Part shown: piece after piece, positions 3,372 through 38,662 of the stretch
Layout: the number at the start of each line of letters is the position of its first letter
Numbering within the stretch: position 1 is the stretch's first letter
Source: Lentisphaeria bacterium
GTDB lineage: Bacteria > Verrucomicrobiota > Lentisphaeria > Oligosphaerales > MVZH01
DNA length: 44,343 nt
Assembly: GCA_032251435.1 (NCBI GenBank)
Contig: JAVVEH010000036.1
Coordinates: 1-44,343 of the forward strand
Reading direction: 5' to 3'
Program-made: the position numbers and the translations under genes
Notes under the pieces: generated by a model
Database searches by the model: none
The model's input: the letters and a program-made list of their open reading frames with translations, nothing else
Told to the model about the DNA's origin: nothing

Positions 3372-4388
3372 ATGAGCGACCTCGCGGAACGATTGGAAAA
3401 CGCCTTGAAAGAGGCCCGGGACCGACTTCACGCGGCCGACACACTGGACGCTGTGGAAACAGTCCGCATTGATTATATCGGTCGGAAAGGGACCCTGCCC
3501 GCCTTGATGAAGGAAATGGGCGGTCTATCGCCGGACGAGCGCCCCTTGGCGGGAAAGACAGCCAATGCCGTGAAACTCGGCATCAATCAGGCCCTCGAGG
3601 AGGCCACCGCCCGGCTGGCGGCCGCGGGCGGCGCCGCTGACACGCTTGACGTGACGCTTCCCGGGCGCCGCCGGGAACTTGGCCACAAACATCCCATCAC
3701 CCAAGTGATGGACGATGCCCTGGCGATTTTTCAGCGTCTGGGGTTTATCGCGGCGGACGGGCCGGATTTAGAAACGACTTATCACAACTTCGACGCCCTG
3801 AACACTCCCGACGATCATCCGTCACGGGATATTCAAGACACCTTCTATCTGCCGGACGGCCGGTTATTGCGGACCCAGACCTCGCCCGTCCAAATCCGTG
3901 TGATGGAAAGTCAGCAACCGCCCATTCGCATTGTCTGTCCCGGACGCTGTTTCCGCCGGGACACGCCGGATGCCACGCACAGTATGAACTTCCACCAGAT
4001 CGAAGGTCTTTACGTGGACAAAAACGTGTCCTTGGCGGATCTTAAAAGCACCTTGACCCATTTCGCCCACGAGCTTCTCGGTCCGGATGTGAAGGTCCGC
4101 TTCCGTCCCCATTTTTTCCCGTTCACCGAACCGAGTATCGAATACGATTTTTCCTGCATCATGTGCAAAGGGAAAGGCTGTAGAATCTGCAAACAGTCCG
4201 GTTGGCTGGAGATCTCCGGCGCCGGCATGGTGGATCCCGCGGTTTTCTCCGCTGTCGGCTACGACCCGGAAAAATGGACGGGATTCGCCTGGGGACTCGG
4301 AGTCGAACGGATCGCCATGATCCGTTACGCGATCAGCGACATTCGTCTTCTTTACGAAAACGACATGCGTTTTTTGAGCCAGTTTTGA
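3372..4388 (+). CDS. pheS: phenylalanine--tRNA ligase alpha subunit
   Basis: 338 aa with class II aaRS motifs (FRRDTPDATHSMNFHQIEG, GLGVERIAM). Immediately followed by pheT. Confidence 0.95.
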   Translation: MSDLAERLENALKEARDRLHAADTLDAVETVRIDYIGRKGTLPALMKEMGGLSPDERPLAGKTANAVKLGINQALEEATARLAAAGGAADTLDVTLPGRRRELGHKHPITQVMDDALAIFQRLGFIAADGPDLETTYHNFDALNTPDDHPSRDIQDTFYLPDGRLLRTQTSPVQIRVMESQQPPIRIVCPGRCFRRDTPDATHSMNFHQIEGLYVDKNVSLADLKSTLTHFAHELLGPDVKVRFRPHFFPFTEPSIEYDFSCIMCKGKGCRICKQSGWLEISGAGMVDPAVFSAVGYDPEKWTGFAWGLGVERIAMIRYAISDIRLLYENDMRFLSQF

Positions 4389-14914: not shown

Positions 14915-16180
14915 TCAAACAGCGGTGATGTCAAGATCGAATCCAAACCGGCCCAGGTCTTTCCCCCATCCGCGGATATCGCGGCTCAAAGATCCGCGCC
15001 AGACACCGGGACGGATCTCCGCCAATTGAATCTGCCCGCCCGTCACCCCTCGTTCCCGGGCCGCCACCCCTTCCGGCAACAGGGACACCGCCCCGTCAAA
15101 CTGAAATAAAACCAGGGTTTCAGGGCTGAATTGAGTGATCAAGTCGCCATAACTCCGACCAGTCTTTTCGATGACGCTGGCCGCTTGCTTCATCTCCGGA
15201 TCCAGGCTGCCGACGAATTGGGAACCCGCCCGGATCAAATCCACAACGGGTTCCAAAAGAGCCTGATCGGGTTGCAGGCTGAAACTCAATGTCAGAGGAA
15301 TCACTCGCCGGTCCATGGTTTTAGCCGAAGCGATCCGGAACAATTCGCACGTATCCCAATGCACGGTGTCGGGCAACGATTTAACCGGCAGCGCCACGCC
15401 ATTCCGGTGACGGCCGCTGGCGGCGCTAAAGACCCATCGCGTTATCCTCTTTTTCATCCGCAACCAGTCCTGAACCGTGTATGCCTGTCGTTGATACCCC
15501 TTTCCGGTCACCCGCCCGCGCCGGATGGAAATCTTTTTTTCCGTCCATTCAAACCAAGGCTTGTTTATCCTCACCCCCACCATGCTATGGGTGTCTCTCA
15601 CGCCAAAATCTTCCACCGTCAAGACCACCCGGGCCAGCGGTTGATCGGCCGCGCCGCCCAAGGTGAGCTCTATCGTCGCCGCATGATCGAAGGGGGCTTC
15701 AACCACGGTAAATCCAACAGCTTCGTCATCATCATCCGCGCATTTCGCCAGGACGGCTAAAAACGCTCCGACCGCCCGGGAACCATATTCAGCCGGATCC
15801 ACACCCGCCGTACCGAGCACTTTCGCCGCGGCATCCGCGAACTGACTCCCCTTAAGCATCGCGTCACGCGCTTTTTTATCCGACTCCACCACCCGTATGG
15901 CGACGGGCAACGGGCCGGGACAGGGGCCGAGGAAAGCGATCTGATCGGCGCCGGAAACATCCACGCTCCCGGTGCCGGAGTAAGGAAACAAACTGGATTG
16001 TCCGGCGATGGACAGACTGATGAATCCTTCCCGTCTCCCGGTTAAATCCTTTGATCTGAACTGGCGGGTGTCCACCCGCATGGATGTCACCGACACCGCC
16101 ACCAGGTGTTTGCGGCTGATCGCGCCCCCGGAACTTCGGACAATCGCTTGGATTTGGCCTGCCAAAGAGAGTCGTTTCAT
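14915..16180 (-). CDS. conserved hypothetical protein (421 aa), upstream of cstA
   Basis: Long ORF with non-repetitive, soluble-looking composition. No motif I can assign. Same strand as cstA, 94 bp gap. Confidence 0.55.
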   Translation of the reverse strand: MKRLSLAGQIQAIVRSSGGAISRKHLVAVSVTSMRVDTRQFRSKDLTGRREGFISLSIAGQSSLFPYSGTGSVDVSGADQIAFLGPCPGPLPVAIRVVESDKKARDAMLKGSQFADAAAKVLGTAGVDPAEYGSRAVGAFLAVLAKCADDDDEAVGFTVVEAPFDHAATIELTLGGAADQPLARVVLTVEDFGVRDTHSMVGVRINKPWFEWTEKKISIRRGRVTGKGYQRQAYTVQDWLRMKKRITRWVFSAASGRHRNGVALPVKSLPDTVHWDTCELFRIASAKTMDRRVIPLTLSFSLQPDQALLEPVVDLIRAGSQFVGSLDPEMKQAASVIEKTGRSYGDLITQFSPETLVLFQFDGAVSLLPEGVAARERGVTGGQIQLAEIRPGVWRGSLSRDIRGWGKDLGRFGFDLDITAV

Positions 16181-27117: not shown

Positions 27118-28266
27118 ATGCTCAGTTACATCCTCCGCAGACTTTTATTAATGATTCCGACGCTGTTTGGCATTCTCACCATCACGTTTATGATCATTCA
27201 ATTTGTCCCTGGCGGCCCGCTTGACCAGATTCGGCAAACGCTGGAAGGCGGGGGGCCCGGGGGCGCTGAAGTCGGCGGCGGCGCGGCGCCTCAGGCCGGG
27301 GGAAGTGACGGCGTCCGACGGCGGGGAATCAGCCAGGAGGACCTGGACCGGTTAAAAGCGATTTATCATCTCGACCGTCCATTGCTCGAACGGTACCTGC
27401 GCACCTTCATCTGGTTTTCCCGGTCCGACAAAAGCGTGCCGTTGCGTAAAGCCCTGTTAGACGGGGATAACTGGGATGGCATGCTGCTTTTCAAATTCGG
27501 TGACTCGTTCTACCGGAATCGAAATGTGCTGGGATTGATTGGTGACGCCTTGCCCGTCTCCATCTCATTGGGATTCTGGAGTTTTCTTCTCACCTATCCG
27601 ACGTGTATCCTTCTCGGCATCGCCAAAGGCGTTCGGGAAGGCACCAAATTCGATGCCGTCAGCAGTGTCATCATTCTAGCGGGCAACAGCATTCCCGGTT
27701 TTGTCATGGCCATCCTTCTCATTGTTTTTTTCGGGCCGGGAGAAAAAGCGTTTATCCCTTTTATTCCTCTGGACGGACTCACGTCATCCGGTTCTTTCGG
27801 CTATGAGGACTGGAGTTTTTTCAAAAAAACACTGGATTATTTCCAGCATTTAGCCGCGCCGGTTTTCTGTTTAAGCATTGGCAGTCTGGCTGTTCTGACC
27901 ATTCTCACCAAAAATTCCATTCTTGAAGAAATTCGCAAACAATACACCATCACGGCGAAAGCCAAGGGCTTATCCAACACCCAAGTCCTCTTCCGTCATA
28001 TTCTGCGGAACGCCATGCTGCCTCTGGTCACCAGTTTCCCGAGCCGGTTTGTCGCGATTTTCTTCACCGGCAGTTTATTGATCGAACGGATCTTTAAATT
28101 GGACGGGCTGGGCCGACTCAGCTATGACGCGCTGATCACCCGCGACTACCCCATCGTCATGGGCAGCTTGTTCATTATGACACTGATCGCCTTGCTCACC
28201 CAACTCATCACCGACATTTGTTATGTGGTCGTCGATCCGCGGATTTCCTTCAGCGGCTCCCAATAG
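27118..28266 (+). CDS. ABC transporter permease, OppB/DppB/YejB family (orphan)
   Basis: Start taken at MLSYILRRLLLMIPTLFGILTITFMI, the canonical OppB-type N-terminus. Long periplasmic Gly-rich insert as in YejB, and the EAA-like loop region. No cognate OppC, ATPase or substrate-binding gene follows. Confidence 0.8.
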   Translation: MLSYILRRLLLMIPTLFGILTITFMIIQFVPGGPLDQIRQTLEGGGPGGAEVGGGAAPQAGGSDGVRRRGISQEDLDRLKAIYHLDRPLLERYLRTFIWFSRSDKSVPLRKALLDGDNWDGMLLFKFGDSFYRNRNVLGLIGDALPVSISLGFWSFLLTYPTCILLGIAKGVREGTKFDAVSSVIILAGNSIPGFVMAILLIVFFGPGEKAFIPFIPLDGLTSSGSFGYEDWSFFKKTLDYFQHLAAPVFCLSIGSLAVLTILTKNSILEEIRKQYTITAKAKGLSNTQVLFRHILRNAMLPLVTSFPSRFVAIFFTGSLLIERIFKLDGLGRLSYDALITRDYPIVMGSLFIMTLIALLTQLITDICYVVVDPRISFSGSQ

Positions 28267-28296
28267 GCTGACAGCCATTTTTTCTGTTTCTGAGTC

Positions 28297-28330
28297 TTGA
28301 CAATTCCCTGTGGTGATATACTTTGACTGC
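28297..28330 (+). promoter_or_regulatory. candidate sigma70-type promoter for the pspA-flotillin-giant ATPase operon
   Basis: TTGACA at 28297-28302 followed by TATACT/TACTTT-like -10 candidates 14-16 nt downstream. Lies about 95 nt upstream of the first gene of the operon. Spacing is not ideal. Confidence 0.3.
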
Positions 28331-28421
28331 ACGACGAGGATTGGAACCCCATTCTTAACAAGATCTCCGGACCGATCCAGGCGCCGACTTTGGACATGGA
28401 TATTGGCAAAAGGAGAGCCCG

Positions 28422-28991
28422 ATGAGCAAGCTGTTCGACCAGGCGCGAGCCCGGCTCAGGAATAGTATTGACGATAAGGAGGAGGCCAAAACCGCACGGG
28501 GAGACGGTCCCGCCGACGTGAGCCAGGTCGCGAAAGACATACAGGAAGCGGCCGCGGAGGCGGTTGACAATGTGGTGGCGAGCCCTTTCCGTTTAAAAAA
28601 GGCGCTTCAGCAACGCGCCACTAAAAAGGTTTTGGAAACCCAGGAGAAATTCACGGACCTTCTCCCCGCCTTGGCCCAGGCTGGATTCCGGCTTGATTCA
28701 TGCGCTATTGACGCCAGTATGTCGCCGACCATCATGTCCCGTTTTTCAGTCACCCGACAGCTCACTGATGAAGAGGAAGAAGAATTCCTGGCTGCCAACC
28801 GGGGAAACCGGTTTGCCTATCTCCTCTTTGAAAGTCTTTTCCGAGCGGTCAACGTAGCCGAAACCCTGGATTTCCCGGGTTTACATTTCGCCGGTCTGGA
28901 GGTCCGTGTCACCGCCAGCCCAAAAGTAAGCATGCTCTACCGGAGCGTCCAGGTCCAGGAATTGGGCCAAACAGTCATCCACGGAGGTTGA
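28422..28991 (+). CDS. hypothetical acidic protein, first gene of the PspA locus
   Basis: 189 aa, no TM segment, EEEEE stretch, no recognisable motif. Ends 4 bp before pspA-like gene on the same strand. Confidence 0.55.
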   Translation: MSKLFDQARARLRNSIDDKEEAKTARGDGPADVSQVAKDIQEAAAEAVDNVVASPFRLKKALQQRATKKVLETQEKFTDLLPALAQAGFRLDSCAIDASMSPTIMSRFSVTRQLTDEEEEEFLAANRGNRFAYLLFESLFRAVNVAETLDFPGLHFAGLEVRVTASPKVSMLYRSVQVQELGQTVIHGG

Positions 28992-28994
28992 AAA

Positions 28995-29666
28995 ATGGGA
29001 AAACTAGCAAGAGCGATCAGTAATTGGTTCAAAGACAAACACGATCAAATGGCTGGACTTTTCACGGATCCCGAACGGGACACCAAAATCGCCATCGAGG
29101 ATAGTAAGCGGCTCGTTGAGGCGTTCACCGAAAAAGTGGCCCGCCTGATGGCGGAGACCAAAAAGCTCAAAAAACTTCTGGTGGACGCCGAAGCGGATGT
29201 GGAAAAATGGCGCGGGATCGCCGTCAAAGCCGCCGAAGCCCGGGACGAGGGAGATGCCCGCACCGCCCTCACCCGTAAGGCCGCCGCCGTGAAAAGAGTT
29301 GAAACGCTTGAAGCCGAAGTCGCTCAGAACGAAGAAGTGACTGAAAAACTCCGCGCTCAGATCGCCGACACCAAAGCCCGGATTGACCAGGCCGAAGCCG
29401 ACCGCGCGCGTTTAGTGGCCCGCTTGGAAGGAACCCAAATCCGCAAAGACGCCGCGAAAGCCGGGGCTAACTTTGGGGATACCAGCAATCCTCTGGCCGC
29501 TCTGGATGACCTGGAACGGGCCGTCAAGAACAGCGAGGCCGAAGCCGAAGCCTGGGAAGAACTTCTCGGCGAAGACAGTGAGGGCGAGGTCCTGGAGACA
29601 AAATACAACACGGAGAATGACGCTATCGAAGCCGAGTTGGCAGAACTCATGAAGGGGAAAAAGTGA
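28995..29666 (+). CDS. pspA: PspA/IM30 (Vipp1/ESCRT-III-like) family protein
   Basis: 223 aa, almost entirely coiled-coil. N-terminus MGKLARAISNWFKDKHDQMAGLFTDPER and the E/A/R/K-rich heptad pattern match the PspA/LiaH/Vipp1 family. Confidence 0.85.
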   Translation: MGKLARAISNWFKDKHDQMAGLFTDPERDTKIAIEDSKRLVEAFTEKVARLMAETKKLKKLLVDAEADVEKWRGIAVKAAEARDEGDARTALTRKAAAVKRVETLEAEVAQNEEVTEKLRAQIADTKARIDQAEADRARLVARLEGTQIRKDAAKAGANFGDTSNPLAALDDLERAVKNSEAEAEAWEELLGEDSEGEVLETKYNTENDAIEAELAELMKGKK

Positions 29667-29714
29667 ATCCGGCGAAAGCCCTGCCACATGTCCTGACGCG
29701 GAAACAGGTTTAAT

Positions 29715-30398
29715 ATGGAATTTCTTCATACGATATTTTCCGGCCCGATGCTGGTCTACAGCGTCTCGCTCTGCTTGATGTTGCTTTACTGGCTGATCAT
29801 TCTGATTGGCTTGATCGATATCGAGTCACTGGATGCTGTTTTCGGTTTTGGTGACGCTTTGGAGGGCGCGGGAGAAGTGGCGGGAGAAGCGGCCGCGGAA
29901 TCCGCGGGGGACGCGTTGGCTGGCGCGGCGGCGCCTGGCCCTCTGGAAGCGGTGCTCGGATTCATCGGCATCGGGACCGTTCCGGTAACCATTGTCGGCA
30001 GCATTCTGATTATCACCATGTGGTTTCTGGCTTTCTGCCTGTATTATTTTGTGTCGCCGGTCGTGACGCACCTGGCCCCCCCCCTGATAATCACCCTGTG
30101 CTTTTTTCTGCTCTCGGCCTTTGGCAGTTACTTCACCACGGGGTTGCTGACGCGCCCGCTGCGGAAAGTTTTCACGGTTGTCAGCACCCATGCCGGTTAT
30201 CACCTGGTGGGACGGACCTGCAAAATTCGCAGCAGCGAAGTGACCGAAATGTTTGGTGAGGCTGAATTGATGGTGAAGGATTCATTCATCATCATTTCGG
30301 TCCGTTGCGATGAGGAGAATAATCTGAAAAAAGGCGAAGAGGCTGTGATTATTGACTATCAAAAAGAAACCCACCTATACGACGTGCGAAAACTTTAA
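29715..30398 (+). CDS. YqiJ/NfeD-like inner-membrane protein (DUF1449-type) with C-terminal OB-fold
   Basis: 227 aa. Two hydrophobic helices, a Gly/Ala/Glu-rich linker, and a C-terminal beta-rich segment (LVGRTCKIRSSEVTEMFGEAELMVKDSFIIISV) resembling the NfeD/YqiJ beta-barrel. Located directly upstream of a flotillin gene, as in E. coli yqiJ-yqiK. Confidence 0.6.
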   Translation: MEFLHTIFSGPMLVYSVSLCLMLLYWLIILIGLIDIESLDAVFGFGDALEGAGEVAGEAAAESAGDALAGAAAPGPLEAVLGFIGIGTVPVTIVGSILIITMWFLAFCLYYFVSPVVTHLAPPLIITLCFFLLSAFGSYFTTGLLTRPLRKVFTVVSTHAGYHLVGRTCKIRSSEVTEMFGEAELMVKDSFIIISVRCDEENNLKKGEEAVIIDYQKETHLYDVRKL

Positions 30399-30461
30399 CA
30401 ACCGACCCCGACCGTTATCATTGAATCGACCGCGAACGAAGCGCTTAAAAACAGGAGAACG

Positions 30462-32504
30462 TTGCGCATGATCACTCCATTCATTCCCTTGGGAGCCCTG
30501 TCCATTCCAGAACCCCTTCTGGCCGTACTGATTGTCATCGGGTCACTCATCGTCATCGTCTTTGGCTTGATGATCCTGGCCGTCCAATTTTACCGCAAGG
30601 TGGAACAGGGGCAAGCCTTGATCCTGAATAAATTGCGTGACAAAGTTCAAGTCAGTTTCACGGGTGGCATTGTCCTGCCGATCATCCACAAAGCGGAAGT
30701 GATGGACATCTCCGTCCGGGCCATGGAAGTGGAGCGTTCCGGTAAAAACGGCTTGATTTGCGAAGACAACATGCGGGCGGACATCCGGGTGACTTTCTAC
30801 GTCCGGGTGAACAAAACCCAGGAAGATGTGCTCAAGGTCGCCCAGTCCGTCGGTTGCAAACGCGCGTCGACCAAGGAAACGCTGGAAGAACTCTTCCAGG
30901 CCAAATTCTCCGAAGCTCTGAAAACGGTGGGTAAGCAGATGGAGTTTACCACGCTGTTCACCGAACGGGAGAGATTTAAAGAACAGATCATTAAAGTCAT
31001 TGGTGAGGATTTGAACGGCTATCGCCTGGAAGACGCGGCCATTGACTATTTGGAACAGACCCCGTTGTCCTCTCTCGATGACTCCAATATCCTCGATGCC
31101 CAGGGGATTCGTAAAATTGTTGACTTGACCGCCCGCGAGGCCGTTCAGACCAATGATTTCCGCCGCAACCGCGAGAAAATCATCAAGGCCCAGGATGTGG
31201 AGGCCCGCGAAAAGATTCTGGAGCTGGAGCGCCAGCAGGCCGACGCCGAAGCCAGGCAGGCCCGCGAAATCGCCACCGTGCAAGCCCGCGAACAGGCCGA
31301 AGCGGAAAAAGTGGAAGCTGAAGAACGCCTGAAATCTGAAAGCGCCCGCATCGCCACCGACGAGGAACTGGCGGTCGCTGAGGAAAATAAACTCCGCCAG
31401 ATTGAAATTGCCGCCAAAGCCAAGGAGCGGACGATCGCGGTCGAAACCGAACGCGTCGAACGCGACCGGCAATTGGAAGCGGTCGAACGCGAACGGGCCG
31501 TGGCCATCAAGGACATGGAAAAGGCGAAACAGGTCGAAACAGAAAAGAAAGAAGTCGAAGATATCATCCGTGAACGCGTGATGGTCCAACGCACCGTGGC
31601 CGAAGAAGAAGAGAAGATCAAAGACACCCGCGAAATCATGACCGCCGAGCGGGAACGCAAGCGGCAGGTGATCGAAGCCGAACGGGAAGCCGAACAGGAA
31701 CGCGTCAAAGAAGTCGTGGCCGCCAAGGCTAAAGAAGAGGCCGCTGAAAGCCTGTTCGCCGAAATGGTCAAAATGGCCGAAGCCGAACGGGTTAAATCCG
31801 AAAACATCAGCGAAGCCAAAAAAGTGTTGGCTGAAGGGGTCATCGCCGAGGAATCCGCTTTGGGCTTAGCTCAAGTCAAGGTTAAAGAGGGCGAGGCGCG
31901 TGCCATTGAACTGACCGGGAAAGCGGAAGCTCTGGCTCAGACGGAAAAACACAAAGCCACCGCGTTCGGTCTGGAAGCCGAAGGCGAATCTGAAGCTAAA
32001 GCCATGGCCGCCAAGTTCCATGCGGAAGCCGAAGGCATCAACGAAAAAGCCGCCGCCATGAAGGAATTTGACGGGGTCGGCCGCGAACATGAAGAGTTCA
32101 AACTGGAACTCAATAAGGCCAAAGAAATTGAGCTGGCCGCCATCGATGTCCAGCGCAAGGTCGCCGAATACCAGGCTGATGTCCTCGCCGAAGCCATGAA
32201 ACAGGCGGACATCGACATCGTCGGCGGCGACGGAAAATTCCTGGAAACCTTTTTCCGCTCCATCAGCCTAGCCAAGAGTGTTGATGGATTTGTTGACAAG
32301 AGCAAAGAAGCCACCAAACTGGTGGCAGGCGACAGCGCTAACATCATGACCAAGCTGTCCAACGTTCTGGCCGATAGCGGGATCAGCAGCGAAGATGTGA
32401 AAAATCTGAGCATGTCTCAGATGTTAAACAAACTCAGCAAAACTGAAAATCCTGACACCGCCAAACGGCTCGAAGAGATCATCGGCTGGCTGGCGGAACA
32501 ATAA
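30462..32504 (+). CDS. flotillin (SPFH/Band-7) family protein, YqiK/FloA-like
   Basis: 680 aa. N-terminal membrane anchor, SPFH domain (QALILNKLRDKVQVSFTGGIVLPIIHKAEVMDISVRAMEV), then a very long E/A/R/K-rich coiled-coil typical of bacterial flotillins. Confidence 0.9.
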   Translation: MRMITPFIPLGALSIPEPLLAVLIVIGSLIVIVFGLMILAVQFYRKVEQGQALILNKLRDKVQVSFTGGIVLPIIHKAEVMDISVRAMEVERSGKNGLICEDNMRADIRVTFYVRVNKTQEDVLKVAQSVGCKRASTKETLEELFQAKFSEALKTVGKQMEFTTLFTERERFKEQIIKVIGEDLNGYRLEDAAIDYLEQTPLSSLDDSNILDAQGIRKIVDLTAREAVQTNDFRRNREKIIKAQDVEAREKILELERQQADAEARQAREIATVQAREQAEAEKVEAEERLKSESARIATDEELAVAEENKLRQIEIAAKAKERTIAVETERVERDRQLEAVERERAVAIKDMEKAKQVETEKKEVEDIIRERVMVQRTVAEEEEKIKDTREIMTAERERKRQVIEAEREAEQERVKEVVAAKAKEEAAESLFAEMVKMAEAERVKSENISEAKKVLAEGVIAEESALGLAQVKVKEGEARAIELTGKAEALAQTEKHKATAFGLEAEGESEAKAMAAKFHAEAEGINEKAAAMKEFDGVGREHEEFKLELNKAKEIELAAIDVQRKVAEYQADVLAEAMKQADIDIVGGDGKFLETFFRSISLAKSVDGFVDKSKEATKLVAGDSANIMTKLSNVLADSGISSEDVKNLSMSQMLNKLSKTENPDTAKRLEEIIGWLAEQ

Positions 32505-32633
32505 CACGAACAGGCCAAAGCCTGAACCGCGCGCCTGACGAAAAGTATTGCTGACGGCAAAGCCTCATACGGGGCGAGCCGCTTCGGCGCATGCGCATTG
32601 GACACCTGACAAAACCGCGGATTTTTTGATCCT

Positions 32634-35600
32634 ATGCCCGACGAAAAAAACACAACTCACCCGGACGAACTGACGAACACCGCGGGAACCGCGGTGGAGG
32701 AGAAACTGGAGGGGGGGGCTTACGAGGTGCTGCGCAAGCGTATTGAAGCGCTTGACGGCAAACTCTGCGCGGCGCTGGCAAGCCTGAACGGGCGCCGTAA
32801 AGATATCTTCGGCAGTCACGAGAGCAAGCTGATTGGCACCCAGCGGGTCACCACCGACAACAACTGCGTTCCCCGTGACATTGTCGCTGTCGATGGACAC
32901 ATGCTGTTCGGCTATAATGTGTTCATCGGGCTGAAAACCGAGACAGTGGTCGAGGACGTGCTTTGTCTGATGAAATTCGACGGGGAGCAATTCGGGGCTT
33001 CGGAGCTTCCGCTTCTCGACACTCCCGCCTTTCGCCGGGACTTCCAGGAACTTTACAAATACTATCGCGACGCCCGGTTTCTCCAGTTCGTGAAAACGGA
33101 ATCACGCCTGTTGGTCATCTTCCAGATTGGCCGGTCGGTCACCGATGTGAAAATTTTCCGCTGGCAGGTCGAGAAAGGTGGAGGATTTAAATACATTGAT
33201 GACCGCGGGGATATGGAGTACAAGCTGCCGCCCCAGCATGATTTTGAATGGACAGCCGCCACCCGCGACAATCAGGTGCAAGGCGCCCACCCCCATTTTT
33301 CCATTCTCGACCAGCTGTTTGTGGAATGCATCGGCGGGACACTGACCATTAAAATAGAAAACAACACCAAAACCGGAGAGGGGATTTTCAATGAACCCGT
33401 CGACAACCCCGATCAGACCCTGGACGACGCCGAAATCTATTACGCCGAAGTCGGCCCGTTAATTCTGCTCAAAGTTAAACCTTACCGGGAAGAAAAATAC
33501 CGCTACATCGTCTACAACAGCCGTTTGCAGACGGCCATCCGCATCGACGCCATTGACCAAGCCTGTATTGAACTGCCGGAAGATCACGGCATCATCTTCC
33601 CCCGTGGCTATTATCTCATCGATGGACGTTCCCGGGTCTTTGACGAAAAAGTGGACAACATGCGCTATCTCCAGTGCAAAAAAAGTCCCAACGGTGAGGA
33701 CTTTCTCTACGTGTTCTATCATGAGGAACAGGGCCTGCACATCCTGCTTCAGTACAACATGATTTCCAAGGAACTGTCCACGCCGATCACCTGCCATGGG
33801 TGTTCTCTGTTCAAAGACGGTCGCATGATCGTCTTCAACGCCCCCGATAACGAACCGCGGCGGAACCACCCCATGCAGCTGTGGAAGACACCCTTTTACA
33901 GCGATGATTACGAAGCTCCTGTCACCAGTGATTCCCCCTTGGCCCGAATCGGCAACCGGGATTTAGTCCGCGGCATTTCCGAAGGATATGGAATTTCCCG
34001 GCTGATCAACAGTGACATCATCACTCTGGATGTTTACGCGGACTTGCTGAAATCCACCACCAATCTGCTGGACGGCTACCACTGGATCAATGAACCTGAG
34101 TGCGGAGATCTTAAGACCATTGTCCAAGAGATTAATCAGACGGCGGTGGCCGCCATCGACGAATTCGAAAAAGTCGTGCGGATGAAAGAAAACACCGCCA
34201 AGCGGATCGAAGAGAGTCGGCAGGCCGTGCATCGGGCCATGTTGGATCTACGTCCGGATCAGATGCACGACATCAATGACTTTGTCAACGCGATCAGCGA
34301 ATACCGCGCACGCCGCGGGATTGTCATCGGCCTGCGTGACTTGCGTTACGCGGACATGGCCCTGATTGACGAAATGGATACTCAGCTGGCCCGAGGAACC
34401 CAGGACATTTCTGAGGCGTGTGTCGAATTCCTGCTCAAGCCGGATTCCCTCAAACCATACAGTGAAAAAAATGCCGACTTAGATAAAAAAATCGCGGCCG
34501 TCAACAAAGTCGCCGATCTTGAAAAACTCGCTGGGGAACTGGAAAAATTAGCCGTCCAACTGGACCTGCTGACCGATGTCGTCGGCAATCTGAACATTGA
34601 CGACGCCACCAAAACCACCCGCATTGTCGAAGCCATCACCGATGTCTACGCGGGGGTCAACCGCACCCGTTCCATGACCCGCAACCGCCGACTGGATATT
34701 GGCCGGGAGGAAGCGGAAGCTGAATTCGCCGCGCAATTCAAACTCCTCTCCCAAAGCATCACCAACTACATTGGCATGTGCGATAGCGCCGCCAAATGTG
34801 ATGAGCTCCTGACCAAGATCATGGTCAGCATCGAGGAACTGGAAGGGCGATTCGCTGATTATGAGGAATTCACTCTGCAAATCGGGGAAAAACGCGAAGA
34901 GGCTTACAACGCCTTCGCCGACCGCAAACAGGTCCTGGAGGACAGCCAGAAAAAACGGGTCACCTCTCTAGCCAGTTCCGCGGAGCGGATCCTCAAGGGC
35001 GTTGTCGCCCGGTCGGGAACCTTCAAGGATGTTGACTCCATTAACGCCTACTTCGCCAGCGACTTGATGGTCTCGAAACTGCGTGATGTCACCCGGCAGC
35101 TCTACGACATGGGTGAGTCAGTCAAAGCCGATGAACTCAATGGCAAACTGAAAACCGCGAAAGAAACCGCCGTCCGCGGACTCCGCGACAAGCTGGAACT
35201 GTTCACCGACGGCATGGACATTATCACATTCGGGGACTACTCGTTCTCCGTCAACACGCAACCTCTTGAGTTGACCACTCTCCACCGGGATGGCGACATG
35301 TTTTTCCATCTTACCGGAACCAGCTTCTACGAAAAAATCACGGACCCGGAGTTTCTCGCCACCCGCGCCATCTGGCGGCAGGAACTGATCAGCGAAAACC
35401 GGAATGTCTACCGGGCGGAATATCTCGCGTATCAGGCCTTGGAAGCCGCCTTGAACCATACCGGCGACTTTTCCATGGATGACCTCCGGAAAGCCGCGGG
35501 ACACGTTAAAGATCTAGGCACACTGGTTCGGGATTTTGCCGCTCCCCGTTATAACGAAGGCTACGACAAAGGCATTCATGACCATGACGCCACTCTCATC

Positions 35601-37826
35601 CTCAACGAACTGATCCGCTTCTACGACTCCACCGAACTGCTGCGTTATGACTCCACCAGCCGGGCTCACGCCATTATTTTCTGGCGCTACTACGGCAATC
35701 AAGCGCATCGCCACATTCTCCGCAACCGTATGCGCAGTTTCGGCTCTTTGCCCCGCGTCTTCGGCTGTTCCGCCATCCGCCGGGATTACATCGACGAAAT
35801 CCGCGCCGCCATGTGTGTCTTCTTCGAGGCGTTTGGACGGGTTATCGACCCGGCAGTTCTCAGCCAGGCCGCCGAATTTCTCTATTATGAACTCCAGGAT
35901 GCCGACGAGCTCGAATTCACCATCAACGCCCTTGCCTATGACCTGCACAAGCAATTCATGAGCTACCTGAAAACAAAAAAAGCTGAAAAGGCTTTCCTGC
36001 AGGACATTGACGAACTGTGCTCCGACTACATCAGTCGGATCAATTTGATCCACGACTGGGTCTCGGCTTTCGTGAAACAAAGCGGGAACGACCCTTCAGA
36101 ACACTTCATCTGGGAAGTCGTGGCCTTGATCTCCTCCGGCGAAGTCATCAACCACGATGTCACCTCGGTCGGCACGTACGTTGAGATAAAGGGCCTGTTA
36201 GGGCAGCATCACTTGGTGCGGGACAACCGGCTGGATCTCCACTTCGATCTGTTCCTGCTGAAGATGAAAGAGTTCGTTTCCGTTCAGGTCCCCAAATTCG
36301 AAGCCTTCACGCGTCTGCGCAAACAGCTGATCGACCGCCGCCGCGAGGAAATCCGCCTGGCCGAATTCCTGCCCCGGGTCATGGGCGGCTTTGTCCGAAA
36401 CAAACTGATCAGCGAGGTGTATCTGAATCTTGTCGGCGCGAACTTCGCGAAACAACTTGGTGTCATCGGCGACGCCCGTCGGACCGACCAGATGGGCCTG
36501 CTTCTACTTATTTCCCCGCCGGGATATGGCAAAACCACGCTCATGGAATATGTCGCCAACCGCCTGGGCCTCGCCTTTATGAAAATCAACGGGCCGGCTA
36601 TCGGCCATTCCGTCACCAGCCTGGATCCGGTCGAAGCCCCGAACGCCACCGCCCGTGAGGAACTCCAAAAGCTCAACCTGTCCCTGGAAATGGGCAATAA
36701 TGTGATGATCTATCTGGATGATATTCAGCACTGCCATTCCGAATTCCTCCAGAAATTTATCTCGCTCTGCGACGCCCAGCGGAAAATTGAAGGGGTCTAT
36801 CGCGGGAAAACCCGAACCTACGACCTGCGCGGGCGCAAAGTCGCTGTCGTCATGGCCGGCAACCCCTACACCGAATCCGGAGAGAAATTCCGCATCCCCG
36901 ACATGCTCGCCAACCGCGCCGACACCTACAACCTCGGCGACATCAGCTCCTCATCCAGAGACGCCTTTGAGCTGTCCTTTATCGAAAACAGCATGACCAG
37001 CAATCCCGTTCTCTCCAAAGTGGCCACCCGTGGGCATGCCGACATCTATAAATTCGCCGAGGCCGTCCGGCGGAATTCCACCGAAGGCATTGAATTTGAA
37101 CACAATTATTCCGCCGAAGAGGTAAACGAAACCCTTAATGTCCTCCGCAAACTTTTCATGGTGCGCGACACCGTCCTGAAAATGAACCGCCAGTACATCG
37201 ACTCCGCCGCCCAGCAGGATGAATACCGCGCCGAACCCCCGTTTAAACTCCAGGGTTCCTATCGCAACATGAACCGGATGGCCGAGAAAGTCTATCCTAT
37301 CATGACCGATGAGGAAGTCAACCAACTGATCATCGATCACTACACCAACGAAGCGCAAACCCTGACCACAGGAGCGGAGGCCAACCTGCTCAAATTCAGT
37401 GAAATTCTCGGGATACTCACGCCCGAACAGACTGACCGCTGGCAGCGAATCCGCGATGAATTCCAACGGCGGCAGACATTGGGCGGGGTCGACAATGACG
37501 ACCAACTGGCCCAGCTCATGGCCCAGCTCTCCACCTTGGGTGTCGGTGTCAAGAACATCACAGCCGCGATCGCCGCCCGCCCGGACATTGACCTGTCCCC
37601 ACTGGTCAAAGCCCTCCAGGCCGCAGGTAAAAAGCCATCACCCATCCAGGTCAACGCCCAGTTCCCGCCGGAATATGCCGAAGCCTGGGCGCGTCAGAGC
37701 CAGTCACACGATCAGCTGGCCGAAATCCTTAACGGCATGCGCCAGCGTAGCGACGACTTTGTCAAGCTCGGGGATCTTCTGGATGATATCATCCATGGAA
37801 AAGTGACCTTGCAGATCACAAAATAA
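32634..37826 (+). CDS. giant (1730 aa) protein with single MoxR/AAA_5-like AAA+ ATPase module near the C-terminus; N-terminal about 1200 aa of unknown function
   Basis: Uninterrupted 5.2-kb ORF. Walker A LLLISPPGYGKTTL, Walker B MIYLDDIQH, and the MoxR-like sensor/arginine-finger region VMAGNPYTESGEKFRIPDMLANRADTYNL. Nothing recognisable before about residue 1200. No TM segments obvious. Confidence 0.85.
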   Translation: MPDEKNTTHPDELTNTAGTAVEEKLEGGAYEVLRKRIEALDGKLCAALASLNGRRKDIFGSHESKLIGTQRVTTDNNCVPRDIVAVDGHMLFGYNVFIGLKTETVVEDVLCLMKFDGEQFGASELPLLDTPAFRRDFQELYKYYRDARFLQFVKTESRLLVIFQIGRSVTDVKIFRWQVEKGGGFKYIDDRGDMEYKLPPQHDFEWTAATRDNQVQGAHPHFSILDQLFVECIGGTLTIKIENNTKTGEGIFNEPVDNPDQTLDDAEIYYAEVGPLILLKVKPYREEKYRYIVYNSRLQTAIRIDAIDQACIELPEDHGIIFPRGYYLIDGRSRVFDEKVDNMRYLQCKKSPNGEDFLYVFYHEEQGLHILLQYNMISKELSTPITCHGCSLFKDGRMIVFNAPDNEPRRNHPMQLWKTPFYSDDYEAPVTSDSPLARIGNRDLVRGISEGYGISRLINSDIITLDVYADLLKSTTNLLDGYHWINEPECGDLKTIVQEINQTAVAAIDEFEKVVRMKENTAKRIEESRQAVHRAMLDLRPDQMHDINDFVNAISEYRARRGIVIGLRDLRYADMALIDEMDTQLARGTQDISEACVEFLLKPDSLKPYSEKNADLDKKIAAVNKVADLEKLAGELEKLAVQLDLLTDVVGNLNIDDATKTTRIVEAITDVYAGVNRTRSMTRNRRLDIGREEAEAEFAAQFKLLSQSITNYIGMCDSAAKCDELLTKIMVSIEELEGRFADYEEFTLQIGEKREEAYNAFADRKQVLEDSQKKRVTSLASSAERILKGVVARSGTFKDVDSINAYFASDLMVSKLRDVTRQLYDMGESVKADELNGKLKTAKETAVRGLRDKLELFTDGMDIITFGDYSFSVNTQPLELTTLHRDGDMFFHLTGTSFYEKITDPEFLATRAIWRQELISENRNVYRAEYLAYQALEAALNHTGDFSMDDLRKAAGHVKDLGTLVRDFAAPRYNEGYDKGIHDHDATLILNELIRFYDSTELLRYDSTSRAHAIIFWRYYGNQAHRHILRNRMRSFGSLPRVFGCSAIRRDYIDEIRAAMCVFFEAFGRVIDPAVLSQAAEFLYYELQDADELEFTINALAYDLHKQFMSYLKTKKAEKAFLQDIDELCSDYISRINLIHDWVSAFVKQSGNDPSEHFIWEVVALISSGEVINHDVTSVGTYVEIKGLLGQHHLVRDNRLDLHFDLFLLKMKEFVSVQVPKFEAFTRLRKQLIDRRREEIRLAEFLPRVMGGFVRNKLISEVYLNLVGANFAKQLGVIGDARRTDQMGLLLLISPPGYGKTTLMEYVANRLGLAFMKINGPAIGHSVTSLDPVEAPNATAREELQKLNLSLEMGNNVMIYLDDIQHCHSEFLQKFISLCDAQRKIEGVYRGKTRTYDLRGRKVAVVMAGNPYTESGEKFRIPDMLANRADTYNLGDISSSSRDAFELSFIENSMTSNPVLSKVATRGHADIYKFAEAVRRNSTEGIEFEHNYSAEEVNETLNVLRKLFMVRDTVLKMNRQYIDSAAQQDEYRAEPPFKLQGSYRNMNRMAEKVYPIMTDEEVNQLIIDHYTNEAQTLTTGAEANLLKFSEILGILTPEQTDRWQRIRDEFQRRQTLGGVDNDDQLAQLMAQLSTLGVGVKNITAAIAARPDIDLSPLVKALQAAGKKPSPIQVNAQFPPEYAEAWARQSQSHDQLAEILNGMRQRSDDFVKLGDLLDDIIHGKVTLQITK

Positions 37827-38077
37827 TCCCCTTGCTAAGAAGACTGTTTTGCGACGCCGCCCTCGACAGGTGATTGTTGGCTTCCGTCTTCGGTCTGCCT
37901 CGTTGTCGTAATCGTTCTCGTAATCGATTGCCTTCTTCCTCGCTATCCGTATTTACCGAGGGCCGATCTCGATTAGGACAACGACAACCGTTCTCACGCT
38001 ATGCGGGATCACTGACAAGGACAACAAGCGGGTTCGGCCGCGCGGTCAGGCGCTCAGATCATCGATCAGGCGACAGG

Positions 38078-38560
38078 TTATTCATAGACCATGACCGTCA
38101 CTGTTTGCCGGCCCCATTTCACGGCGTCCCCGTGGCGGGGAAAGAAAACATCCAGCCGCCGCGGCCCCTTAATATCTCTCCCGCGGTCCCGGACAACAAC
38201 ATCCCCGTAGCCAGGCACATGCAGACGCGTGCCAAAGGGATAATACGCGGTGTCCGCGGCGGCGACACCTTTTTTGGCCCGACTGCCGTCGGCGCAAACG
38301 CCCACCTCCTTCCGCTCTCCTTTACGCGGTCCGGAGACATGAACCGGTTTCCCCAGCCACGTCCGCCGCCAGCCGCAGCATGTCCCGCAGGAACAATAAG
38401 CGGTCACCTCCATCCGGACCGGCCGTCCCCCTCCATCTGTGCCGGCGCAGCCGTTCAGAAACACAGTCAACCCCGCGGGCATCAGAACAAGAACACAGCG
38501 GCGGAAGAAAACCGTCCATTCACGTGATTCCAGCGTCGGAGAAACCATGCGGTCGTCCAC
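38078..38560 (-). CDS. 3D-domain lipoprotein (MltA-like lytic transglycosylase domain)
   Basis: Lipobox LTVFLNGCAG after a signal peptide. 3D-domain block VTAYCSCGTCCG...VAADTAYYPFGTRLHVPGYGDVVVRDRGRDIKG...LDVFF with the three conserved Asp. True start may be the second Met (38548). Confidence 0.75.
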   Translation of the reverse strand: MDDRMVSPTLESREWTVFFRRCVLVLMPAGLTVFLNGCAGTDGGGRPVRMEVTAYCSCGTCCGWRRTWLGKPVHVSGPRKGERKEVGVCADGSRAKKGVAAADTAYYPFGTRLHVPGYGDVVVRDRGRDIKGPRRLDVFFPRHGDAVKWGRQTVTVMVYE

Positions 38561-38605
38561 CTTTCACAACTGTCACTGATTGGTTCCCCGGCATGACGGG
38601 AGCGT

Positions 38606-38647
38606 GTGACTCGTGACTCGTGACTCGTGACGCGTGACGCGTGAGTC
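38606..38647. repeat. heptanucleotide tandem repeat (GTGACTC x3, GTGACGC x2, GTGAGTC x1)
   Basis: Six contiguous 7-bp units read directly from the sequence. Located between the pilT stop and the start of the 3D-domain lipoprotein gene, i.e. in the latter's promoter region. Confidence 0.85.
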
Positions 38648-38662
38648 GTGGCCTGAACGTCG

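Follow-up and report, generated by a model that had tools for sequence, protein, structure and literature searches.

A conserved flotillin-ATPase gene core and its PspA-containing form in a Lentisphaeria bacterium

Described operons and the Lentisphaeria locus

An operon closely related to the one considered here has been described in the computational study of Ravi et al. 2024 (mSystems; PMC11237479), where it comprises CesT/Tir-PspA, YqiJ/YuaF, Band-7/flotillin and AAA+ ATPase genes, with a CesT/Tir-like protein encoded by the first open reading frame (ORF) in the example given (ANH61663.1 of Dokdonia). The same study reported that an HKD phospholipase is added in some Proteobacteria and that operons in an abbreviated form, flotillin-YqiJ(-ATPase), have a wider distribution, and its authors favour a function in putting together membrane-linked complexes, a contextual inference similar to the present one. 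Here, we analyse a locus of this kind in the window, the whole stretch of DNA under study, which is a 44,343-bp contig from a metagenome-assembled genome (MAG) of an uncultured Lentisphaeria bacterium. Five genes of the window, located at 28422-37826 on the + strand, encode a small protein (ORF1), a PspA/IM30 protein, a YqiJ/NfeD-like membrane protein, a YqiK-like flotillin and a giant AAA+ ATPase. Comparison with related loci revealed that the last three of these genes are the conserved unit, and that the locus in the window is a lineage-specific elaboration of it.

The window locus falls within the operon type of Ravi et al. 2024 and is a variant with a different PspA lineage and a first gene that is not CesT-like. 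From PspA onwards, the gene content and order are the same, and the abbreviated YqiJ-flotillin-ATPase form corresponds to the core defined below. Furthermore, the ATPase (DUF3686, DUF7902 and AAA) and flotillin families of the window are also those of Bacteroidota loci with a CesT_Tir_1 gene. In contrast, the first gene of the window locus is not CesT/Tir-like, its PspA lineage is not that of the YjfJ family, and no HKD phospholipase is encoded in the window. The operon type is, therefore, known from comparative genomics, and its presentation as a candidate undescribed system in the initial annotation of the window, made from sequence alone, was not borne out; what is new is the PspA lineage and its non-CesT partner.

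NfeD proteins are partners of SPFH proteins, and two such pairs are familiar from model bacteria. The yqiJ-yqiK genes of E. coli and the yuaF-floT genes of B. subtilis are homologous to the third and fourth genes of the locus and occur in identical order. They differ in that no ATPase gene follows yqiK in E. coli K-12, and in that the ATPase-linked flotillins are so divergent that 19 of 20 family members are missed by the Pfam Band_7 profile, with one reaching it and the window flotillin giving no direct match. An ancient connection between SPFH and ESCRT-III proteins was indicated by Makarova et al. 2024, who cite the need for the SPFH protein YdjI in PspA localisation in B. subtilis, while a 2025 review considers a Vps4-like ATPase to be seemingly absent from bacteria and the roles of Band-7 partners to be undetermined. 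We found no experimentally characterised Psp or flotillin system in the literature that includes the giant ATPase, in agreement with the initial annotation.

A conserved core of three genes

Gene neighbourhoods were compared in a sample of 80 loci fetched from species genomes, using iterative hidden Markov models (HMMs); adjacency is expressed relative to those loci with enough upstream DNA, i.e. 68 for the flotillin and 64 for the YqiJ-like gene. A flotillin gene lies directly 5' of the ATPase gene and on the same strand in 64 of the 68 informative loci (~94%), and is itself preceded by a YqiJ-like gene in 57 of 64, with median gaps of 120 nt (flotillin-ATPase) and 20 nt (YqiJ-like-flotillin) and with all of the genes on one strand. 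The order YqiJ-like, flotillin, ATPase is thus found far beyond chance, and these three genes constitute a conserved unit that is co-inherited in order across about 12 phyla. The loci belong to genomes of Planctomycetota, Bacteroidota, Verrucomicrobiota, Myxococcota, Gammaproteobacteria and Desulfobacterota, and also of Clostridia, Actinomycetota, Acidobacteriota, Omnitrophota, Kiritimatiellota and Lentisphaeria. All-vs-all clustering of the 80 loci revealed no broadly conserved fourth neighbour. These counts reproduce and quantify the operon description of Ravi et al. 2024.

PspA is encoded in only 18 of the 80 loci as counted with a broad profile (10 with a narrower profile seeded from the window), and the five genes of the window are therefore a lineage-specific elaboration of the three-gene core. 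The initial annotation had proposed that the ATPase is linked to PspA as well as to the flotillin and YqiJ-like genes, and had named a lack of enrichment of ATPase homologues near pspA, flotillin or nfeD genes as an outcome that would count against this. For the flotillin and the YqiJ-like gene, such a lack is decisively contradicted by the above counts; PspA is not a core partner.

At E ≤ 1e-10, the membership of the ATPase family exceeds 5,234 proteins, with an identical architecture throughout, and the family is encoded in at least 568 species-representative genomes. Carriers include Pseudomonas (also on plasmid pQBR103), Myxococcus, Proteus mirabilis, Xenorhabdus, Hymenobacter and Streptomyces, a patchy distribution that is consistent with horizontal transfer. 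In three loci, an ORF with a DUF559 (endonuclease-like) domain lies ~40 nt 5' of the ATPase gene (for example 818-1258 in locus L017), which is probably a selfish insertion.

Beyond the triad, an HKD phospholipase D gene was found in six loci and a rhomboid protease gene in five; all of the accessory genes found point to the membrane. Regulatory genes were also observed at the flanks. In Bacteroidota, a divergent upstream gene encodes a helix-turn-helix (HTH) protein of the HTH_3 plus Peptidase_S24 (LexA/CI-like) type (L056, 3847-4644, - strand, and six other loci), and in Verrucomicrobiota, a divergent gene encodes a phage-CII-like HTH protein (L068, 6543-7022, - strand, and five other loci). 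A Kiritimatiellota locus (L025, 6131-6646, + strand) may likewise have an HTH gene, recognised by eye, which is co-directional with and just 5' of pspA. Flanking regulators of this sort hint at control that is induced by stress and is possibly SOS-like.

The presence of phage-type regulators (CII-like HTH and HTH-S24) beside some loci leads to the question as to whether this is an anti-phage or abortive-infection system, in which a scaffold of flotillin and PspA would detect disturbance of the envelope and the ATPase, joined in some loci by the phospholipase D or the rhomboid protease, would be the effector. The patchy distribution and these accessory genes are consistent with such a role, as is the 'phage shock' name, and B. 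subtilis dynamin provides a precedent for membrane-based phage resistance. However, searches against PADLOC-DB 2.0 returned no significant match for any of the five proteins, the only marginal ones being LmuB (E=0.003, to the PspA coiled coil) and IetA (E=0.004, to the P-loop). ATPase homologues are absent from 50,697 phage records and occur on just 13 of 72,556 plasmid records, most of which are of megaplasmids or chromids. The conservation across phyla (70% mean identity for the AAA+ module and 43-60% for the whole protein) is unusually high for a defence gene. In the window, the surrounding genes have housekeeping functions in the envelope, and the GC content of the region is even. Our literature search on flotillins and anti-phage defence, or on a 'DNA repair ATPase' with SPFH proteins, produced nothing relevant. 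We consider a defence function to be improbable, and the idea of a defence effector raised in the initial annotation is left unsupported.

The giant ATPase and its membrane partners

The ATPase gene (32634-37826, + strand) encodes a protein of 1730 amino acids (aa) that NCBI names 'DNA repair ATPase'. Hydropathy analysis predicts it to be soluble, with zero transmembrane (TM) segments. From its N-terminus, it consists of DUF3686, DUF7902, a conserved region that has no name, one AAA+ module and a C-terminal tail of variable sequence, and the view that a MoxR/AAA_5-like ATPase is its only recognisable module was, therefore, mistaken. DUF3686 (aa 46-483; 32769-34082, + strand) matches PF12458 with E=1.4e-188; across phyla its mean identity is 51%, and many of its polar residues are invariant. 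It has been described as a set of beta-propeller repeats by Ravi et al. 2024 (PMC11237479); comparison of its profile with PDB sequences gave no match and self-alignment showed no internal repeat, which neither confirms nor refutes that description. DUF7902 (aa 604-686; 34443-34691, + strand; PF25472, E=2.3e-25) is present in all of the 120 listed homologues. The region that follows (aa 687-1010; 34692-35663, + strand) corresponds to no Pfam domain, and is ~50% identical across phyla, on par with DUF3686, with the invariant motifs FSVNxQPLxLT and HLTGT; judging from this conservation, it is probably an unrecognised domain.

The AAA+ module (aa 1241-1600; 36354-37433, + strand) was delineated from its motifs, an AlphaFold2 (AF2) model and Foldseek searches. 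It possesses a Walker A motif (SPPGYGKT, aa 1294-1301), a Walker B motif (IYLDD, aa 1359-1363, ending in DD rather than DE), a sensor-1 asparagine (N1410) and a candidate Arg finger (R1428). Because all four of these motifs are invariant in alignments of 12 and of 55 sequences, the ATPase can be taken, from its sequence, as catalytically intact. The AF2 model of aa 1201-1730 (predicted local distance difference test, pLDDT, 78.5) displays a genuine AAA+ fold, with a beta-hairpin (aa 1384-1397) ahead of the sensor-1 strand, a position that, in so far as the model is followed, would be typical of the RuvB/Lon/MoxR superclade.

Foldseek analysis of this model yielded 940 PDB matches at E ≤ 0.001, and the listed top 50 are all AAA+ proteins. 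RuvB, NorQ/CbbQ, FtsHi, Cdc48 and Lon match about equally well (E~1e-6, 11-19% identity). Since several clades tie at these low identities, placement of the module in any solved family was rejected. Comparison with the Pfam AAA clades gave scores of 32.1 bits for the generic AAA profile, 26.4 for RuvB_N and 26.3 for AAA_5 (cutoff 22). The MoxR chaperones NorQ, CbbQ and RavA resemble the module in that they give the best TM-scores to the model (TMt ~0.5), in the AAA_5 match just above its cutoff, and in the hairpin before sensor 1. They differ in having only 12-17% identity to it and in lacking the ~1,240 additional N-terminal residues of the giant ATPase, and RuvB scores just as well. MoxR-family ATPases are usually accompanied by a VWA-domain partner; no VWA-domain gene was found in the flanks within the window or among the conserved neighbours.

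An ESCRT-III-superfamily polymer (PspA) encoded beside an AAA+ ATPase is reminiscent of both ESCRT-III/Vps4 and PspA-PspF. However, the giant ATPase has no MIT domain, is not of the classical clade and is nearer to RuvB/MoxR-type modules, and it is devoid of the sigma-54 activator domains of PspF. A Vps4-like ATPase was ruled out, as there is no MIT or Vps4 family match and the similarity to classical AAA proteins spans ~35 residues near the P-loop, to which the sequence similarity to p97/VAT is also limited.

The name of the protein suggests another interpretation, namely that it is a true DNA-repair ATPase, whose adjacency to membrane genes would reflect membrane-tethered DNA processing. Beyond the NCBI family name, the Pfam text for DUF3686 reads 'ATPase involved in DNA repair', RuvB_N is weakly matched, RuvB is among the top structural matches, and a LexA-like regulator lies upstream in Bacteroidota loci. 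Against this, we found in the library searched no source for the 'DNA repair' name, no paper tying it to data and none mentioning DUF3686. The RuvB scores are all below curated cutoffs and the similarity is restricted to the P-loop region, while the structural match to RuvB is no better than that to several other AAA+ families. No protease, DNA-binding or nuclease domain was detected in the ATPase, and its conserved partners are membrane proteins. A function in DNA repair is, in our judgement, very improbable.

The flotillin and the YqiJ-like protein gave empty results in single-sequence searches of Pfam and the PDB, and their identities rest on profile-profile comparison, in which family alignments built from the related loci were aligned to E. 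coli YqiK and YqiJ. In the flotillin (30462-32504, + strand; 680 aa, TTG start), a single TM segment near the N-terminus (aa 20-38) is accompanied by an SPFH domain and by a long coiled-coil region rich in E, A, K and R. Its family profile aligns to YqiK at 99.95% in hhalign (E=1.6e-37, 31% identity over ~390 columns) and also matches the coiled-coil region of QmcA (E=0.0013). These features fit the YqiK-like SPFH/flotillin class with a predicted N-terminal membrane anchor.

The YqiJ/NfeD-like protein (29715-30398, + strand; 227 aa) has three to four TM segments by hydropathy, with TM-like segments at about aa 16-34, 91-109 and 116-134, and a soluble C-terminal domain. Its family profile aligns to E. 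coli YqiJ at 94.9% (E=4e-8, columns 30-221) over nearly the full length. The window protein itself matches Pfam YqiJ_N below threshold (E=0.04), and among the 19 family members four match YqiJ_N and one NfeD. Its homology, its predicted topology and the position of its gene directly 5' of the flotillin gene are those of a YqiJ/NfeD-type SPFH partner. The initially proposed identities of both proteins are thus upheld.

PspA and ORF1 in the window and elsewhere

The PspA gene (28995-29666, + strand) encodes 223 aa, with no TM segment. The protein matches PF04012 with E=1e-16 and 61.7 bits (cutoff 33.9) over positions 21-216 of 220, which confirms, at the level of sequence, the initial assignment to the PspA/IM30 family of the ESCRT-III superfamily. 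It is not a canonical PspA orthologue, as the NCBIfam PspA equivalogs give 53.8 and 35.6 bits, where 243 and 336 would be required. A canonical Psp system is likewise ruled out by these scores and by the neighbours, which are ORF1, the YqiJ-like gene and an ABC permease gene; PspB, PspC and PspF are absent from the neighbourhood. The protein is nearer to the PspA of E. coli (E=2e-9); its match to YjfJ is not significant, and it is not of the YjfJ type.

In other lineages, PspA is accompanied by different genes. It follows a CesT_Tir_1 gene in Bacteroidota, while in Pseudomonas a YjfJ-type PspA follows DUF2170/YjfI, and downstream there is a gene for an HKD phospholipase D and, in some cases, one for a rhomboid protease. 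On pQBR103, a megaplasmid of P. fluorescens SBW25 (NC_009444.1, 85395-104527), the triad is appended to a yjfJKLMC-type polyamine operon that encodes PspA, rhomboid, DUF2491, DUF350, DUF1190 and glutathionylspermidine-synthase-like proteins, which, without the rhomboid gene, is the yjfJKLMC arrangement of E. coli. PspA is, therefore, a lineage-specific addition, drawn from different PspA lineages with different small partners. Furthermore, because the PspAs of different clades barely align to each other while the corresponding ATPases are 43-47% identical, the sequences suggest the repeated, independent recruitment of ESCRT-III-like PspA modules to a conserved flotillin-ATPase core.

The nearest Lentisphaerae relatives (L083, 4177-9989; L084, 3796-9784) encode an ATPase ~60% identical to that of the window. 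Here, the slot 5' of the triad is occupied by genes for a divergent PspA-like protein (~258 aa; PF04012 at E~1e-3, below cutoff), a 592-aa classical-clade AAA protein that is VAT/p97-like (E=1.6e-28) and a TerB protein. In these two loci, an ESCRT-III-like gene is paired with a classical-clade AAA gene in a bacterium.

ORF1 (28422-28991, + strand) is 189 aa in length and has no TM segment. The initial annotation gave this length correctly and termed the protein acidic, which is only marginally the case (D+E 14%, K+R 13%). A confident AF2 model predicts that a long helix at the N-terminus accompanies a compact bb-aa-bb domain (aa ~87-175), and this model has no match in the PDB; single-sequence searches of Pfam and the PDB were also empty. 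A word-indexed homologue search returned ORF1 alone, while an exhaustive HMMER search recovered 104 relatives that share a ~115-aa domain covered by no Pfam family, a few of them with apolipoprotein- or LEA-like N-terminal helices. ORF1 sits in the slot held by CesT/Tir-like genes in other lineages. It was ruled out as a CesT/Tir-like protein, since no similarity was seen in sequence, profile (PF22550, DUF2170/YjfI) or predicted fold.

The link of ORF1 to the flotillin-ATPase system is real within the Planctomycetes-Verrucomicrobia-Chlamydiae (PVC) superphylum, where it takes three arrangements. The ORF1-PspA dyad recurs in locus L085, with 48% (ORF1) and 78% (PspA) identity to the window proteins. 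In L083, an ORF1-family gene (3512-3994, - strand) is divergent from and adjoins the PspA-like operon, and in the Verrucomicrobia locus L074, one (~14961-15513, + strand) lies ~54 nt after the ATPase gene.

Four distant members of the ORF1 family, on long contigs, are stand-alone genes, and most triad loci have no PspA. Together with the 48-nt gap between pspA and the YqiJ-like gene, these observations could mean that the five genes are not one unit, and that ORF1-PspA forms a stress dyad of its own, which happens to lie beside the triad. However, in Bacteroidota, Pseudomonas, Kiritimatiellota and this Lentisphaeria genome, a pspA gene lies directly 5' of yqiJ on the same strand, with at least four unrelated PspA lineages represented, and ORF1-family genes touch the system in other arrangements, as in L083 and L074. 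Such repeated convergence is hard to attribute to chance, and we assign little probability to an independent dyad.

The arrangement within the window is itself that of a compact block. All five ORFs are co-directional at the coordinates initially assigned to them, with gaps of 3, 48, 63 and 129 nt in gene order, and a terminator scan revealed no terminator-like structure between any of them, including the flotillin-ATPase gap. A strong Shine-Dalgarno sequence (AGGAG, 28411-28415) precedes ORF1, and a tentative promoter-like element was read directly from the sequence at 28297-28322 (+ strand), consisting of TTGACA (28297-28302), a 14-nt spacer and an extended -10 box, TGnTATACT (28314-28322). 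Its spacing is non-canonical and it was not reported by the consensus scan. Just before it, at 28266-28292, a short GGCT-GAC-AGCC hairpin with a T-run follows the stop codon of the ABC permease gene, below the thresholds of the scan. These three elements fit a transcription-unit boundary 5' of ORF1, which is suggestive only; the numbers of hits in the sigma-70 and terminator scans were close to those expected from shuffled sequence, and neither scan is informative for this phylum.

The flanking genes are unrelated to the block. Upstream, on the same strand, lie genes for a UDPGP (UDP-sugar pyrophosphorylase), a lipid A acyltransferase and the ABC permease. Downstream, 836 nt separate the ATPase stop codon from a convergent gene for a PilT-like T2SSE ATPase, and a gene for an M48 peptidase also lies on this side. 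This interval (37827-38662) contains no credible ORF and no Rfam match; a 217-aa ORF within it is rich in R, P and S and not credible as a gene. An Rfam scan of the whole window returned zero matches, and no second copy of any of the five components is present in the 44,343 bp.

Proposed role of the system

We propose that the core encodes a flotillin/YqiJ membrane scaffold with a dedicated AAA+ remodeller, and that the ATPase acts on this scaffold, a reading for and against which we see the balance as about even. The flotillin, held by its N-terminal TM anchor and bound to its YqiJ-like partner, would build a large oligomeric scaffold of the SPFH type at the inner membrane, on its cytoplasmic side. 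The ATPase, which is predicted to be soluble and probably assembles into a ring via its single AAA+ module, would dock there through its conserved N-terminal domains and spend ATP to remodel or take apart the scaffold itself or a client bound to it. In the Lentisphaeria bacterium, ESCRT-III-like PspA and ORF1 would be co-expressed, so that membrane sealing or repair may be coupled to the site of the scaffold. Taken as a whole, the system would serve to maintain the inner membrane when the envelope is stressed.

Several observations weigh against this proposal. Four of the 68 informative ATPase genes have no flotillin nearby, and PspA is absent from 62 of the 80 loci. The AAA+ module is not Vps4-like, with RuvB and the MoxR-type NorQ/CbbQ as its top structural matches, and the stretch aligned to pore-loop-1 of p97/VAT contains zero aromatic residues, which weakens a simple threading-disassembly model. 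The LexA/CI-like regulator and the 'DNA repair ATPase' label leave some room for a connection to DNA damage. It is from their spacing, and the lack of terminator-like structures between them, that we infer co-transcription of the five genes. Finally, no experimental work on any member of the ATPase family was found in the literature.

In the HflK/C system, an SPFH cage surrounds the AAA+ protease FtsH. This combination of an SPFH scaffold and an AAA+ ATPase at the inner membrane provides a functional analogy for the proposed mechanism, although FtsH is membrane-anchored and carries a protease domain, while the giant ATPase is predicted to be soluble, has no protease domain and is homologous to FtsH in the AAA+ fold only. 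By the same analogy, the flotillin/YqiJ scaffold may instead serve to corral the ATPase at the membrane, where it would act on other membrane proteins or lipid-associated complexes in quality control or as an assembly chaperone. The best AAA+ matches include FtsHi and the MoxR-type chaperones NorQ and CbbQ, the large N-terminal domains with their many invariant polar residues could bind a separate client, and the assembly of membrane-linked complexes is the role favoured by Ravi et al. 2024. However, the 80 loci offer no conserved fourth gene that might encode such a client, and neither a protease domain nor a VWA partner is present; the strict gene order and tight flotillin spacing fit either model. 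We regard action on separate clients as rather unlikely.

The proposal of a scaffold with its own remodeller can be taken further. The ATPase may be a dedicated disassembly or remodelling motor for flotillin scaffolds and, where these have been recruited, for PspA polymers, i.e. a non-homologous counterpart of Vps4, with ORF1 as an unrecognised adaptor fold that links PspA to the ATPase. We put this extended version forward tentatively, and regard it as doubtful as a whole.

The 'DNA repair ATPase' label is attached to thousands of proteins, and we found no traceable evidence behind the name. The value of this particular window is modest, since the operon type had been published before and the host is known from the MAG of an uncultured bacterium; the module makes a good target for experiments, but better hosts exist, and the host of pQBR103 is tractable for genetics. 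For the dismantling or regulation of flotillin microdomains and PspA/Vipp1 polymers, the giant ATPase, whose AAA+ module is 70% identical across phyla and whose gene adjoins that of a flotillin in ~94% of informative loci, offers a concrete candidate that can be tested.

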